Shown here: positions 22,372 through 32,769 of the stretch, piece after piece
Numbering within the stretch: the stretch's first letter is position 1
How the letters are laid out: each line of letters opens with the position of its first letter
From: a virus
DNA: 40,035 nt
Virus genome (UHGV): UHGV-0090445
Reading direction: 5' to 3' (one strand)
Position numbers and translations under genes: made by a program
The notes under the pieces: generated by a model
Database searches by the model: none
What the model was told of the DNA's origin: nothing
The model's input: only the letters and a program-made list of their open reading frames with translations

Positions 22372-22809
22372 TCATCGAAGGCATTGCGTCATGATGTACT
22401 CCTGCAGGTAGTTAACCTGCGCGGTTATCCTGTCGATTCCGCTTCGGAGACGGTAATAATTGAGTTCAGCATCTGCTGTAAGTCTTGGGCTTTCTCCATC
22501 GCCCATGCTGCTGGCTCCGGTCGTTGACTTTGCACAGGTGGCGGCGACTTGCAGCCGCTTACGCCCAGCAGAAACATCATCACGGAGACTTTCGATAGTC
22601 GCGTTAGCATCAGCAAGCTCCTTTGTGTATCTGGCGTCGAGTTCTGCTACATCACGTTGACGCTTCTGCATGTCAGCGATTGTGGATGTGGCCTTATCGC
22701 GCTGCTCTTTGTAGGCGATTGCGTTATCACGGTAATGATTAACAGCCCATGACAGGCAGACGATGATACAGATAACCAGAGCAGAGATAATCGCGGTTAC
22801 TCTGCTCAT
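22372..22809 (-). CDS. Rz: Spanin inner-membrane subunit Rz (lambda-like)
   Basis: [31 protein letters not shown]... matches remembered lambda Rz N-terminus; follows endolysin with overlap. Confidence 0.9.
22425..22616 (-). CDS. Rz1: Spanin outer-membrane lipoprotein Rz1, embedded in Rz in the +1 frame
   Basis: 63-aa ORF wholly inside Rz; lipobox LLGVSGC followed by Pro-rich segment ([12 protein letters not shown]), as in lambda Rz1. Confidence 0.8.
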
Positions 22810-23282
22810 ACCTCAATCTCTCTGACCGCTCCGCCAGCCTCTTTGAATTTTGCAATCAGGCTGTCAGCCTTATGCTCGAACTGGCCATAACCAGCACCCG
22901 GCAGTGAAGCCCAGATATTGCTGCAACGGTCGATAGCCTGACGGATATCACCGCGATCAATCATCGGTAAAGCGCCACGCTCTTTAATCTGTTGCAGTGC
23001 CACAGCGTCCTGGCTTTTCGGAGAGAAATCTTTCAGGCCAAGCTGCTTACGATAGGCATCCCACCAACGGGAAAGAAGCTGGTAACGGCCTGCAGCTGTT
23101 GATTTGAGTTTGGGGTTTAGCGTGACAAGTTTGCGAGGGTGATCTGAGTAATCAGTGAATAGCTCTCCGCCTACAATGACGTCATAACCATGATTTCTGG
23201 TTTTCTGACGTCCGTTATCAGTTCCCTCTGACCACGCCAGCATATCGAGGAACGCCTTACGTTGATTATTGATTTCCACCAT
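22806..23282 (-). CDS. R: Endolysin, lambda R-type lytic transglycosylase
   Basis: 158 aa; [39 protein letters not shown]... near-identical to remembered lambda R. Confidence 0.95.
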
Positions 23283-23589
23283 CTTCTACTCCGGCTTTTT
23301 TAGCAGCGAAGCGTTTGATAAGCGAACCAATCGAGTCAGTACCGATGTAGCCGATGAACACGCTAGTTATATAAGCGAGATTGCTACTTAGTCCGGCGAA
23401 GTCGAGAAGGTCACGAATGAACCAGGCGATAATGGCGCACATCGTTGCGTCGATTACTGTTTTTGTAAACGCACCGCCATTATACCTGCCGCGAAGGTAC
23501 GCCATTGCAAACGCAAGGATTGCCCCGATGCCTTGTTCCTTTGCCGCGAGAATGGCGGCTAACAGGTCATGTTTTTCTGGCATCTTCAT
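23266..23589 (-). CDS. S: Holin, lambda S-type (dual start MKMPEK)
   Basis: 107 aa; [64 protein letters not shown] matches remembered lambda S. Confidence 0.95.
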
Positions 23590-25105: not shown

Positions 25106-25630
25106 TTATCCTCTCCCATGATTATGGTGATAGCCCAATCGTGATTCCGCCAATTTTCTGGCATTAACGGCTAGAGATATGTCATCGTATAATCCAAGAA
25201 ATATCTTTTTATTATCACTGTTTATATATGCACCCCACTTTTTATTCTTCTTATAGTAGGCAACACCAATTACTCCAGAGCGATTATTAATAGGCTTTTT
25301 TCTGTTCCTTGAGTTCTGTTTATCATCTACAACGCGCAAATTGCATATTCTGTTATCGCTTTTAATTCCATTTATGTGGTCAATTTCCCCATCAGGTTCA
25401 CTTCCATAAAAGGATATCCATGCGATTCTATGAGCTCGACAAACTTTTTTATTTACAGATATACGAACGTATCCTTTTTCATCTATAGAACCAGCAATCT
25501 TACCGGCATATGTTGAATTCCAGCACTCTCTTACACTTTCTCTTCTCTTGTATATAAACAAACCTGTTTCGCTATTATATTCATACAATTCATTGATTTC
25601 TTTTTGTGTTGGATATCTTTTACCGTTCAT
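25106..25630 (-). CDS. HNH homing endonuclease (HNH plus AP2-like region), AT-rich insertion
   Basis: 174 aa; HRIAWISFYGSEPDGEIDHINGIKSDNRICNLRVV (HNH motif), followed by GVIGVAYYKKNKKWGAYI (AP2-like); AT-rich by eye; wedged between ybcO-like and rusA. Confidence 0.8.
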   Translation of the reverse strand: MNGKRYPTQKEINELYEYNSETGLFIYKRRESVRECWNSTYAGKIAGSIDEKGYVRISVNKKVCRAHRIAWISFYGSEPDGEIDHINGIKSDNRICNLRVVDDKQNSRNRKKPINNRSGVIGVAYYKKNKKWGAYINSDNKKIFLGLYDDISLAVNARKLAESRLGYHHNHGRG

Positions 25631-25917: not shown

Positions 25918-26639
25918 TAAGCAGCCTCCCCTGTTACTTTCAGCATTCCGTTATCGAGCAGCTTTCTGGTCAGCCACTGTTGACCACGCCCGGTGATTTT
26001 TGTGGTGAACGATATCTGTATTCCGTGATTTGTGTTGACCGCTGTTTCTTTCACTGTGAAATAGCCGCGATCCATATATTCCTGCATTGGCACATTGCGC
26101 CGGGAACCTGAAGCAATAAGGATTTTGTGATCGCGCATCCACGCAAACAGTTTGTTTTGACCAATTCCAACAACCTTTGCAAAGTTTCCAATCAAAATTC
26201 CACTGGCCTCGCCAACGCGATCGGCAAACTCAACTTTAGGTGCGGCAATTGCGAGCTGGTTTTCCAGTTGCATTTTCTGCTCAGCAAGGTCAGCAGCAAG
26301 GCGCAACGCTTCTGGTAGCGTTTTGGGGATATTAACCGCAGCTTCTTCAAGCTCTCGCCAACGGTCAACAAGACGAGCGGTGAACTCTGGCGACAACTGG
26401 GCCACAACGACAATACTGTCTCGCTTTCCTTGTTCGCCTTCGAATACATACACACAAAAACTTTGATTTAAGCCTAACCCATTGATTCTTCCACAATCCT
26501 CAATTTGAGGAAGCCGGATAACACCATTTTTAGCCAGCGTTTCGATGGTACGTTTAACATTGTCATGACGCTTACCAACCAACTCAGCGATTTCAATGCT
26601 TGTCATTTTTATGGCATTGCCATTTATTAACTCATTCAT
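25917..26639 (-). CDS. Rha-family antirepressor with KilAC/ANT C-terminal domain
   Basis: 240 aa; N-terminal SIEIAELVGKRHDNVKRTIETL (Rha-like HTH region); C-terminal GILIGNFAKVVGIGQNKLFAWMRDHKIL (ANT/KilAC-like). Confidence 0.8.
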   Translation of the reverse strand: MNELINGNAIKMTSIEIAELVGKRHDNVKRTIETLAKNGVIRLPQIEDCGRINGLGLNQSFCVYVFEGEQGKRDSIVVVAQLSPEFTARLVDRWRELEEAAVNIPKTLPEALRLAADLAEQKMQLENQLAIAAPKVEFADRVGEASGILIGNFAKVVGIGQNKLFAWMRDHKILIASGSRRNVPMQEYMDRGYFTVKETAVNTNHGIQISFTTKITGRGQQWLTRKLLDNGMLKVTGEAA

Positions 26640-26802
26640 CGTCTTCTTCCTCGTACATTGAGCTATTCGGATCGCTCATCAGTTCTGCGCAGCAGTGCTC
26701 ACACATGTGAACTTCCAGCACATGCAGCTTCTGACCGCAGTTAGCGCACGTTAAAGCTCGCTCGACACTTCCTTGTTCGTAACTTCGATTTTGGTCAATC
26801 AC
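26632..26802 (-). CDS. ninF: NinF-like small zinc-ribbon protein (GTG start; absent from the ORF track)
   Basis: 56 codons starting at GTG overlapping the ninE stop and ending in overlap with the Rha start; ...[45 protein letters not shown] resembles remembered lambda NinF. Confidence 0.5.
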
Positions 26803-26981
26803 CTTGTTTTCCTCGCACGTTCTCTAAGCCACCGGATATCCCACAGGTGAGCCGTGTAGTTGAAGGTTTTTACGTCAGATTCTTTTGGGATTGGCTTGCG
26901 TTTATTTCTGGAGCGTTTCGTTGGAAGGTATTTGCAGTTTTCGCAGATGATGTCGGTGAAACTTCGTCGCTGTCGTCTCAT
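26799..26981 (-). CDS. ninE: NinE
   Basis: [60 protein letters not shown] is near-identical to remembered lambda NinE (60 aa). Confidence 0.85.
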
Positions 26982-27394
26982 TCGTACCTCCTGTCGGTAA
27001 ATCTGACACCCTGACCAATAGCCCAGGCTGTTGTGTACTCGATCAGACTTGCCATGCGCTTCACGCTCATCTGCGCGCTGCTTTCGCGAATGTTGACGAA
27101 TTCTCCTTCAAGGCCGCGCAAAACATCAGCTTCCTGTTTTGTTGCCACTGCATGACCGCTAATCAACAAAACCTTCCATTGTTCTGGTTTTAACCATTTT
27201 CCGCACCATTGAACCTGACGAGCGATATCCGCCAGCATCGCGTGAAATTTTGCGTTCTGGTCAAGATTTCGCTTGTAGTCAGTAATGCGGATGGTGACTG
27301 GCTTGTCTTTATCGAGTGGTGTTGCGAGGATGGCATTTATTGCAGCTTGCTGTTGTTGCTTAGTTCGGAGGAAGATTGTTTGCTTCATTGTCAC
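26978..27394 (-). CDS. ninB: NinB (Orf-family recombination mediator)
   Basis: 138 aa; similarity to lambda NinB (LDQN.K....L.D..RQV.W.G.WL..E.WK pattern); lies after the tR2-like terminator. Confidence 0.8.
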
Positions 27395-27395
27395 C

Positions 27396-27602
27396 TCAAC
27401 TCACAAAACGCCACGCCACTTTTGCTACGACAACAGGCATAACACCGATAATCACCCACAGGAAAATGCTACCGAAAAGCACACCAACCAGGTCTTTACC
27501 TTCGCCTACCAGCCGGACAAAACTGCTGGCAACCACAATGAACGTCGCCACCATCCACATAGCACCGAGAATCCTCAATGCAGAAAAAATCAACTCAACC
27601 AC
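27396..27602 (-). CDS. Small predicted 2-TM membrane protein (GTG start) between tR2 and ninB
   Basis: 68 aa, two hydrophobic segments; SD GGAGAG upstream; no lambda counterpart at this position as far as I recall. Confidence 0.4.
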   Translation of the reverse strand: MVELIFSALRILGAMWMVATFIVVASSFVRLVGEGKDLVGVLFGSIFLWVIIGVMPVVVAKVAWRFVS

Positions 27603-27616
27603 GATTTACTCTCCCC

Positions 27617-27649
27617 CAAATAAAAAGGCCTGCGATTACCAGCAGGCCT
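27617..27649 (-). terminator. tR2-like intrinsic terminator
   Basis: Minus strand AGGCCTGC-TGGTAATC-GCAGGCCT followed by TTTTTATTTGGGGGAG, matching remembered lambda tR2 sequence ahead of ninB. Confidence 0.65.
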
Positions 27650-27678
27650 GTTACAAGCTCAGTGATGTAGATGGTCAT

Positions 27679-29559
27679 TTAATACTCTGTCACGTTTTCC
27701 TGTCGCCACGCCTCGTCATATTCCGATTTCGGCATATTGGCGATGTAGCTATATGGCGATCCTGATTCAAGTTGCAGGAACTGGTGCGATTGTTCATCAA
27801 GGAACAACGGGACACCACCTTCCCAACCTTCGCCGTTACGTTGTTTTTCTAGCATCAAAACAGATGCCGGAGACGCCAGTAGCTGTTCGTCCTTCTCTGA
27901 CATCTTTTCACCACTCTGAACTCTCTGTAACGCTCTCTCGCGAGCCTTGTTACGCCAGATGATGAAAAGGTTGTCTGTCAGGTCTGTTATCGCTCCAGAG
28001 CCTTTTACGTCCATTTTCCCGGTTGGTTTTTCTTCGCTGTCTCCTTTTCGCGAGTGAGTAACGAGAATGACGTGGGAGTTTGTTTTGTTTTTGAAGTCGC
28101 AAATCGAGTCAACAAACGCCTTCTGCCCGTTATAGTCATCGTCGCCTATGCCACATTTCATCAGGCTGTCGATGATGAATAACTGGATCCCGTATCGGCG
28201 GCGAGCGTAGTCGAATATTTCGATCAGCCTGTCGGCTTTCGCCGTTCCGGTCAGGCCAAACACCCAGAGTCTTTCGTCATAGAATTTAAATGCAGAGTCA
28301 ATTTCAAGCACTGGCGGCATCTTGCAGCACGTTGCCTGACGGGTAAGGCGCTTAAGGAGAATACCAGGCTTCAGCTCAAGTGACGCGATGCACGTCTTCA
28401 CACCCTGACGCATTGCCTCAAGTGCCATATGCCCGACAACCTCCGTTTTTCCGTGACCGTTCACACCATTGACCAGCGTCAACTCGGCCTCACGGAACTG
28501 GAATTTATCTGCCAGAGATTCCCACGGTGGATTAAACAGATACTGCTGCTTGCCGTAGAAAGCGTTGATAGTGTCCTGGTAAAACTCTCGCGCGCTGTAG
28601 AGTTCTTCAGGGTCGAAGTAGGATGCCGTGCCGATGTACTGCCAGATTTCATCCTCGGTAACACCGTTCATCAGGCATTCGTTGATGTCTTTGTACGGCA
28701 GAGTAACAAGACGGCAACGATGTTCACCGAGTCGGCTTGCGATTTCCCTTGCGGCTTCACGACCAACATCATCAACGTCCATCGAGATGAATATTTCCTC
28801 AAACCTGTCGAGGTTGTGATACTCAAACTCAATCCACTGTTGCTTAGCGCCTTTCCCGCCACCAAACGGCACGGATAACGCCGAGATGCCGTATTGCGCA
28901 TAGCTCATACAATCAATTTCGCCTTCGCAAAGTACAACCGCCCTCACGCCAGCGTCCAGAGCCTGCCATCCGAACAGACAAGGTTCGCAATCACCTTCTG
29001 CCATAATTACTTTCTTCCCGTCCGGGCGATCAGTGCTGATTCGCTTGACCTGCAACAACTCACCATCGCGTTTGTACGGAAGCACCAGAGCATCCAGTTC
29101 TCGCTCTCCATTCCACACCTTGCCGCTGACAACCTCGTAGCGCTTTACGACTTCTGGCGATATACCACGCGATTGCAGGTACTCAAGATGGGATTCTGTT
29201 CTGGTAACGTAGCGGGCGATTTTCTTGCGATCAGGTCTGGAGAATTTTTTCTCACGTTTGGCATCGAAATGGTGATCGTCATCCTTGATACCGAGAAATG
29301 CTTTCGCTTCCTGCATAGCCTGATGCAGGTTAATTCCACGACATGCCATCCACAAATCAAGCATGTCACCGCCGTCTCCCTCAGCGAAATCAGCCCATTT
29401 TTTCTTGCCGCTAAGGTTGACCTTAAGGCTGTTTCCCTTGTCACCGTTGACGTTACCGGCAACCCACTCATGCCCCTCTTTCTTGCCGTTTGGCAACAGG
29501 TGCGGAGCCACCCTGTCAACCTGCGCCCAAAGCAGGTCGCTCAGTTCACTTGGAGTCAT
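27679..29559 (-). CDS. Bifunctional primase-helicase (Toprim-type primase N-terminus, DnaB-like helicase C-terminus)
   Basis: 626 aa; Toprim-like acidic motifs (VVLCEGEIDCMS, FISMDVDDVGREAAREI); Walker A LVNGVNGHGKTE and DnaB-like FIIDSL...; downstream of the initiator gene. Confidence 0.85.
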   Translation of the reverse strand: MTPSELSDLLWAQVDRVAPHLLPNGKKEGHEWVAGNVNGDKGNSLKVNLSGKKKWADFAEGDGGDMLDLWMACRGINLHQAMQEAKAFLGIKDDDHHFDAKREKKFSRPDRKKIARYVTRTESHLEYLQSRGISPEVVKRYEVVSGKVWNGERELDALVLPYKRDGELLQVKRISTDRPDGKKVIMAEGDCEPCLFGWQALDAGVRAVVLCEGEIDCMSYAQYGISALSVPFGGGKGAKQQWIEFEYHNLDRFEEIFISMDVDDVGREAAREIASRLGEHRCRLVTLPYKDINECLMNGVTEDEIWQYIGTASYFDPEELYSAREFYQDTINAFYGKQQYLFNPPWESLADKFQFREAELTLVNGVNGHGKTEVVGHMALEAMRQGVKTCIASLELKPGILLKRLTRQATCCKMPPVLEIDSAFKFYDERLWVFGLTGTAKADRLIEIFDYARRRYGIQLFIIDSLMKCGIGDDDYNGQKAFVDSICDFKNKTNSHVILVTHSRKGDSEEKPTGKMDVKGSGAITDLTDNLFIIWRNKARERALQRVQSGEKMSEKDEQLLASPASVLMLEKQRNGEGWEGGVPLFLDEQSHQFLQLESGSPYSYIANMPKSEYDEAWRQENVTEY

Positions 29560-32256: not shown

Positions 32257-32442
32257 AGCATTCAAAGCAGAAGTCTTTGGGATTGGATGAATGCGCAGGC
32301 TGATGCGCACACGAATGTAACTTGCTGGTCAAGTCTCCCCACAGCGACGGGGGTGCAACTGATTCATTTCGTGGCATGTCTAGCTAGCCGGGGTTCAGCG
32401 CCGGCCATCCAATCACCAAAGCTAACTGACTGGAGAATCCAG

Positions 32443-32769
32443 ATGGATGCACAAACACGCCGCCGCGAACGTCGCGCAGAGAAACAGGCTCAATGGAAAG
32501 CAGCAAATCCCCTGTTGGTTGGGGTAAGCGCAAAACCAGTTAACCGCCCTATTCTCTCGCTGAATCGCAAACCGAAATCACGAGTAGAAAGCGCACTGAA
32601 TCCGATAGACCTTACGGTGCTGGCTGAATACCACGAACAGATTGAAAGCAACCTGCAACGTATTGAGCGCAAGAATCAGCGCACATGGTACAGCAAGCCA
32701 CGCAGTGAAATGGGTGTGACTTGTGTTGGTCGCCAGAAAATGAAATTAGGCAGCAAACCACTTATTTGA
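32443..32769 (+). CDS. N: Antiterminator N (lambda-type)
   Basis: Internal start ATG 32443 of ORF 32287..32769; MDAQTRRRERRAEKQAQWKAANPLLVGVSAKPVNRPILSLNRKPKSRVESALNPIDLTVLAEYH... matches remembered lambda N arginine-rich motif and body. Confidence 0.9.
   Translation: MDAQTRRRERRAEKQAQWKAANPLLVGVSAKPVNRPILSLNRKPKSRVESALNPIDLTVLAEYHEQIESNLQRIERKNQRTWYSKPRSEMGVTCVGRQKMKLGSKPLI

Follow-up and report, generated by a model that had tools for sequence, protein, structure and literature searches.

[quoted passage not shown] One of its members, ninA, has an active initiation site, and translation from it cuts the efficiency of the tR2 terminator by only ~10% (PMC4824070). Lysogens of P22 with a ninA-ninH deletion are viable (PMC11016777); P22 itself does not carry the gene described here.

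The closest relatives of this gene belong to PHROG 1165. More precisely, HK022 gp58, HK75 gp43, gp69 of Stx2-converting phage 86 and ORF69 of Lahn2 are members of the same family. They have in common the length of 68 aa and the place directly behind ninA/tR2, and all of them are labelled "hypothetical protein". The gene is therefore already catalogued as a conserved hypothetical of the lambdoid nin region; it is ordinary and not new. A literature search on the 68-aa protein found no paper, and the only paper with a mention of Lahn2 refers to a different protein.

Other small proteins serve for a functional comparison. T4 Imm is a superinfection immunity protein, small, early and located in the membrane. 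The class II holins and pinholin S21 (~70 aa) have two transmembrane helices and belong to a late lysis cassette. Type I toxins are single-TM peptides of less than ~60 aa, with an antisense RNA and their own promoter. Below, we describe how the locus compares with these systems.

Genomic context

The window is the whole stretch of DNA analysed here, 40,035 nucleotides of the virus genome UHGV-0090445. Its early and late genes are of the lambdoid kind. The positions of N, of a cI-like repressor and of the replication genes are those of lambda. The operon runs from the cro side through the replication genes and the nin genes to Q, and the repressor and N are on the opposite strand, again as in lambda. 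The listed N ORF (32287..32769, plus strand) has 160 aa. Its arginine-rich motif (PF11438) is found only from residue 54, so the true N start is probably an internal codon.

The gene order on the minus strand is primase/helicase, ninA/tR2, the 68-aa ORF, ninB, ninE, ninF and, further on, rusA and Q. Upstream of the module, the primase/helicase (27679..29559) has 626 aa, with the Pfam domains Toprim_2, AAA_25 and DnaB_C, and belongs to PHROG 239 (E 2e-171). Its stop codon abuts the ATG of ninA (TAAATG). The ninA gene (27595..27678) is a hydrophobic ORF of 27 aa, MTIYITELVTGLLVIAGLFIWGRVNRG, and the whole tR2 hairpin lies inside it. Between ybcO and rusA there is also a gene for an HNH endonuclease (25106..25630, minus strand; PF13392, E 1e-16), probably a free-standing homing-type insertion.

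Terminator scan and folding place the intrinsic terminator at 27618..27649 (minus strand). Its stem has 8 bp, 6 of them G-C pairs; the loop has 8 nt, and a T-run follows. The hairpin at 27649..27626 reads AGGCCTGC-TGGTAATC-GCAGGCCT and is followed by TTTTATTT. A match with lambda tR2 had been claimed in the original prediction, and the alignment agrees with it: the terminator and its flanks are identical to those of lambda base for base. The element carries the name tR2 in the HK620 annotation.

The Shine-Dalgarno run GGGGGAGAG (27609..27617, minus strand) is next to the terminator and is invariant in the alignments. In lambda, this run leads directly to ninB. In the window, HK75 and HK620 it leads to the 68-aa ORF instead. 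This ORF occupies 27396..27602 on the minus strand, with a GTG start 6 nt downstream of the run, a TGA stop and 68 codons. Its coordinates, start and length were thus correctly proposed from the letters alone, and the same can be said of the displacement of ninB. The ninB gene, encoding the Orf recombination mediator, extends over 26978..27388 (minus strand; Pfam NinB E 4e-55, PHROG 72). Its ATG, at 27388, lies 7 nt past the stop codon of the 68-aa ORF, and its GAGG Shine-Dalgarno overlaps the TGA of that ORF (TGAGGTGACAATG). At the other end, the TGA of ninA overlaps the start of the 68-aa ORF, the two sharing 8 nt. Lambda has the same ninA ORF, with ATGA overlaps with ren and ninB.

The ORF has the features of the lambdoid nin-region pool: it lies in the early operon, it is tightly packed and coupled with its neighbours, and it is present in some phages and absent from others.

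A simple consensus scan found no promoter-like site in 26900..28000 on either strand, although a weak or non-sigma-70 promoter within the helicase gene could escape such a scan. An own prophage promoter, as in morons, was thus not found; as evidence this is weak, and the gene lies behind tR2. The lack of an own promoter and the position behind tR2 in the rightward early operon point to a delayed-early, N-dependent expression, which we consider probable. The protein would be made only when N lets RNA polymerase pass tR2, that is, in lytic growth and not in the repressed prophage. Translation would begin at the GTG by means of the Shine-Dalgarno run that serves ninB in lambda. With its stop codon inside the ribosome-binding site of ninB, the gene would add one more link to the translationally coupled nin chain.

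Coding evidence and selection

The 4-kb stretch around the gene is overlapped by 48 ORFs of at least 30 aa, so chance alone could account for an open frame of 68 codons. It is the comparative evidence that makes this ORF more than chance. The protein matches PHROG 1165 over the full length (E 6.7e-36, 123.9 bits, residues 1-68 on profile positions 1-68 of 68). Exactly 68 aa are found in 111 of the 120 cluster representatives, and the substitutions nearly always exchange one hydrophobic residue for another. Of 12 homologues, 11 keep the sense frame open; these go as low as 30% identity and include three at 30-35%. No other frame stays free of stops in all homologues; those in the antisense frames appear in the distant homologues.

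The start is also conserved. Its position after the same Shine-Dalgarno run does not change; the codon is GTG in the phages of E. coli and ATG in those of Salmonella. The distant relatives start a few residues later, always upstream of a conserved K/R at position 10.

The dN/dS estimated for the gene is 0.15-0.35. Within type A, one of the two allelic types described below, the values are ~0.15-0.45. Between the types, dS is greater than 1 (saturated) and dN/dS is ~0.3. Comparisons within one allelic type also gave values up to 0.4-1.2, on very few substitutions. Taken together, the comparison of sequences identifies the 68-aa ORF as a protein-coding gene under purifying selection.

Two antisense ORFs on the plus strand overlap the gene, at 27285..27623 (112 aa) and 27376..27765 (129 aa). 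They are open in close relatives and have 1-5 stops in distant homologues, and we rejected them as genes. Both seem to be a side effect of the sense frame, whose second codon positions are T-rich.

The annotation of the gene in GenBank is not uniform. The HK620 (AF335538) and H-19B records do not annotate it. In phiv205-1 (54 aa) and mEp235 (52 aa) it is annotated from internal ATGs, with the loss of half of helix 1. Considering that the distant relatives all start before K/R10, these internal starts are probably wrong.

Distribution, allelic types and apparent dispensability

By tblastn, the gene is present in 107 phage records, all of which cover at least 80% of the protein. They include HK022, HK75, HK629/630, mEpX1, mEp235 and Kapi1, together with 48 Stx2a-converting phages and 22 Salmonella P22-like phages. 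These records are of Escherichia, Salmonella and Stx phages, in line with PHROG 1165 as a family of tailed temperate phages and prophages of Enterobacteriaceae. The ninA/tR2 block itself is found in 385 phage records, about a quarter of them (107/385) with the 68-aa gene. Among complete E. coli genomes, 448 of 5426 (~8%) carry it by megablast, always in the chromosome; PGAP names the product hypothetical protein. The identical protein occurs on at least 1000 contigs and corresponds to UniProt B7MH01 and RefSeq WP_000229808.1. We found no association of the gene with any virion type.

Distant relatives are few. An exhaustive HMMER scan of 1.84 billion representatives gave just 17 matches, with a handful of relatives of 63-68 aa at 31-39% identity. 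The relatives at 30-39% identity are on short metagenomic contigs, one of them just after phage replication genes. The others are in tightly packed runs of small nin-type genes. A metagenomic protein of 375 aa (P0128), also among the 17 matches, contains about six copies of a ~60-aa unit, with E 9e-8 and 23% identity to the query. It is repetitive and looks like a low-complexity or assembly artefact, and we did not accept it as a relative. A single match in Thermodesulfobacteriota, from the related-locus search with query P0133, is spurious.

The copies fall into two allelic types. The window belongs to type A, together with HK75, HK022, Stx2-86 and mEp235; type B is made up of HK620, mEp213, H-19B and SPN9CC. 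Nucleotide identity between the types is 51% over codons 1-47 and 97% over codons 48-68. From the window to HK620 the identity is 100% in ninA/tR2, then falls and rises at these same values within the gene and continues at 93% into ninB. The segment identities place an approximate mosaic joint at codons 47/48 (~27459..27464, minus strand). Even at 51% identity, codons 1-47 keep the frame, the hydropathy pattern and the residues W16, G35 and D37.

The neighbours vary. The upstream gene is lambda P plus ren in the RM14723 prophage, H-19B and mEpX1; a DnaB-type helicase in HK620, HK75, HK022 and SPN9CC; and a primase/helicase in the window and in the Salmonella locus L016. This upstream replication gene is the only material difference of the window from the closest members of PHROG 1165 named above. 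Downstream there is ninB or other small genes, depending on the phage. The order of tR2, ORF and displaced ninB stands as originally proposed from the comparison with lambda, but to have a gene of this family behind tR2 is not peculiar to the phage of the window.

Lambda, P22 and 434 do not carry the gene. In H-19B (locus L006, 1195..1401) and Stx1a_11KH263 there is a stop at codon 15. In the Salmonella phage 146851_sal5 (locus L009, 1201..1515), the ORF is shifted in frame close to its 3' end and runs on to 104 aa. Absence from close relatives, or disruption in them, without consequence had been named in advance as a result that would speak against the ORF. This applies in part, through lambda, P22 and 434 on the one hand and H-19B on the other; as indirect evidence it indicates that the gene is dispensable, not that it is a non-gene. 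From these comparisons, the 68-aa gene appears to be a non-essential accessory gene of the interchangeable lambdoid nin-region pool.

Predicted protein

Two hydrophobic segments had been noticed in the translation, and the hydropathy analysis agrees with them. The Kyte-Doolittle means over 15 residues peak at 2.4 and 2.8, at residues ~11-29 and ~41-60, and the GRAVY is 1.60. Hydropathy, alignment and AlphaFold2 all support a predicted transmembrane helix 1 at residues 11-29 (27516..27572, minus strand) and a helix 2 at residues 41-60 (27423..27482, minus strand). The AlphaFold2 model, obtained with an alignment of 33 sequences, has a mean pLDDT of 90.4 and shows a helix-turn-helix hairpin, in which four residues form the turn between helix 2-33 and helix 38-67. 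We are confident in the predicted fold of two antiparallel hydrophobic helices with a short conserved turn, and two transmembrane segments fit the hydropathy. The protein would insert in the inner membrane.

Six residues are invariant among nine sequences, down to 30% identity. They consist of W16 in helix 1, W49, G53 and P56 in helix 2, and K61 and W64 in the 8-residue C-terminal tail (KVAWRFVS). The turn G35-x-D37 is near-invariant, its motif being G-x-D/E, often followed by P. A basic K/R is conserved at position 10, just before helix 1. The conservation is not significantly confined to one helical face: the observed value was reached in 3670 of 5000 shuffles for helix 1 and in 604 of 5000 for helix 2. 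For this reason, we make no interface claim.

The N terminus carries charges of +1/-1, the loop of +2/-2 and the C-terminal tail of +2. This distribution is the sole basis for the orientation. Both short ends are probably cytoplasmic, which is only mildly favoured, the pattern being ambiguous.

Relationship with ninA

An ORF of the ninA type, of 26-27 aa and with an MTIYITEL start, spans tR2 and is annotated in HK620, SPN9CC and HK630. The NinA of lambda, P22 and HK620 resembles the 68-aa protein in several ways: it is adjacent, hydrophobic and in the same coupled chain, and in some Salmonella prophages it is fused to the 68-aa gene. We considered whether the 68-aa ORF is itself NinA and rejected it. 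The ninA gene lies at 27595..27678 in another frame, and HK620 and SPN9CC annotate ninA separately from the position of the 68-aa ORF. Several tblastn rows are named "NinA" only because of the 8-nt overlap of the two ORFs.

In some Salmonella prophages (loci L016, 2501..2785, and L019, 2501..2782), ninA and the 68-aa gene are fused in frame. The cause is an indel in the G-run of the Shine-Dalgarno sequence, where one G is lost or GTGGTGG replaces GGGGG. The products are proteins of 93-94 aa with three predicted helices and at least four different junctions (P0137, P0139, P0141 and P0144). For one of them, P0141, the collection lists 55 blocks (47 contigs). No such fusion can form from the E. 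coli-type sequence, because a -1 shift there runs into TAA. The internal start and the Shine-Dalgarno core remain in the fusions, which may therefore be neutral. The Salmonella fusions are nevertheless the only hint that NinA and the 68-aa protein might be linked in function.

Possible function

The searches with the 68-aa protein gave no family with a function. No significant family was found in Pfam or NCBIfam, which returned chance matches to hydrophobic models only. With five members of the family as queries, PADLOC returned none of its families up to E 1, and the protein matches no known exclusion or defence model in PADLOC or Pfam. A profile search of PDB sequences gave nothing at E up to 1. 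Foldseek of the AlphaFold2 model against BFVD and PDB gave nothing below E 1.5, with generic helical hairpins only. Rfam on 26500..28500 gave one chance match (E 0.59).

On balance, we favour, with some reserve, an overall explanation in which this nin-region accessory gene encodes an N-dependent early inner-membrane hairpin that likely binds a membrane component. That it would act by binding another inner-membrane component is a guess, the most likely one as judged from the absence of an enzymatic domain and from the location of the most conserved residues in helix 2 and the interface tail. As to the purpose of this binding, our preferred guess, tentative and placed ahead of its rivals, is interference with competing phages. 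While the lytic cycle runs, the protein would hinder rival phages from entering the cell or developing in it, much as T4 Imm does. Exclusion was among the functions suggested in the original prediction. The likeness to Imm, a small phage inner-membrane protein made early in lytic growth, is a functional analogy only; the 68-aa protein differs in having no significant Pfam or PADLOC match.

The same features could also serve host take-over or anti-defence, where the hairpin would inhibit a host inner-membrane protein in lytic growth. Its target could be a transporter, an abortive-infection effector that acts at the membrane, or the protease complex FtsH/HflKC, by which CII, CIII and Xis are degraded. 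Control of larger membrane proteins by small ones is well documented in E. coli, and related nin regions carry counter-defence genes, such as those for Lar restriction alleviation and Dam methylase. The position in the early operon with no prophage promoter and the invariant residues in helix 2 and the interface tail are in line with it. However, no result points to a partner candidate and the conservation is not significantly one-sided on the helices, and we hold this explanation to be unlikely. A peptide that damages the membrane seems improbable. Such a toxin, host-killing or lysis-timing protein (holin- or antiholin-like) would depolarise or permeabilise the inner membrane. The original prediction had already suggested it. 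Two transmembrane helices in 68 residues are the size and layout of a class II holin or pinholin (~65-95 aa), and the small-xxx-small spacing G40-x3-G44 can be read in the sequence of helix 2. But the gene is in the early operon, ~4 kb from a lysis cassette (~22372..23589) that has its own S-type holin (PF05106, 23266..23589) and an Rz gene. The protein has no charged hydrophilic C-terminal tail and no dual-start motif. It has no holin-family match below E 1, the best being to a single member at E 3.1. A lethal pore expressed early would also shorten the burst. By position, tail and family matches, we reject the identity as a holin and disfavour the holin-like peptide of the original prediction. 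Type I toxins differ as well: the 68-aa protein has two helices, the scan showed no promoter on either strand, and the antisense RNA and terminator layout typical of these toxins is not found, the only Rfam hit being the chance match already mentioned.

The fusions raise the possibility of a single membrane unit with three helices, built from NinA and the 68-aa protein as two coupled chains in E. coli phages and as one fused chain in some Salmonella prophages. Wherever we examined it, the 68-aa gene is directly behind ninA/tR2 with stop and start overlapping; at least four different in-frame junctions yield fusions; and the ninA initiation site of lambda is active (PMC4824070). Nevertheless, the terminator hairpin and the T-run leave little freedom to the NinA sequence. 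The fusions keep the internal ATG and the Shine-Dalgarno core and are possibly neutral by-products of the G-run indels, and the linkage can be explained by tR2 as a recombination hot spot. Besides, with ninA/tR2 in 385 records and the 68-aa gene in 107, NinA does not need the 68-aa protein. We regard such a unit as rather doubtful. Its extension, where the pair or the fusion acts as one device at tR2, as a lytic exclusion or anti-abortive-infection factor, is more doubtful still. If it were true, the ninA ORF would gain a role beyond housing the terminator, and the recurrent fusions would reflect a true functional link. Finally, the ORF might be non-functional, carried between recombination hot spots (tR2/ninA and the ninB start) and kept open by its T-rich second positions. 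Its apparent dispensability, the nonsense codon in H-19B, the frameshift in 146851_sal5 and the two antisense frames, likewise open in close relatives, agree with this. So does the 3' third, nearly identical across the types because of recombination and not of selection. Against it, relatives as low as 30% identity, in which the antisense frames are broken, retain the frame, length, start position, hydropathy and six residues. The dN/dS is still near 0.3 where dS is saturated, and the substitutions are conservative over 111 full-length variants. These results make a non-functional ORF very improbable.

Significance

As a further conserved hypothetical gene in the nin region, it would be no surprise to a specialist in lambdoid phages. 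A practical by-product of this work is that inconsistent GenBank annotation is exposed, with copies omitted or started internally. The gene is nevertheless common, being carried by ~8% of complete E. coli genomes, many Stx2a-converting phages and Salmonella P22-like prophages. Functions in exclusion, anti-defence and host control have repeatedly been traced to small membrane proteins that phages make early, and a phenotype for this one would be useful.
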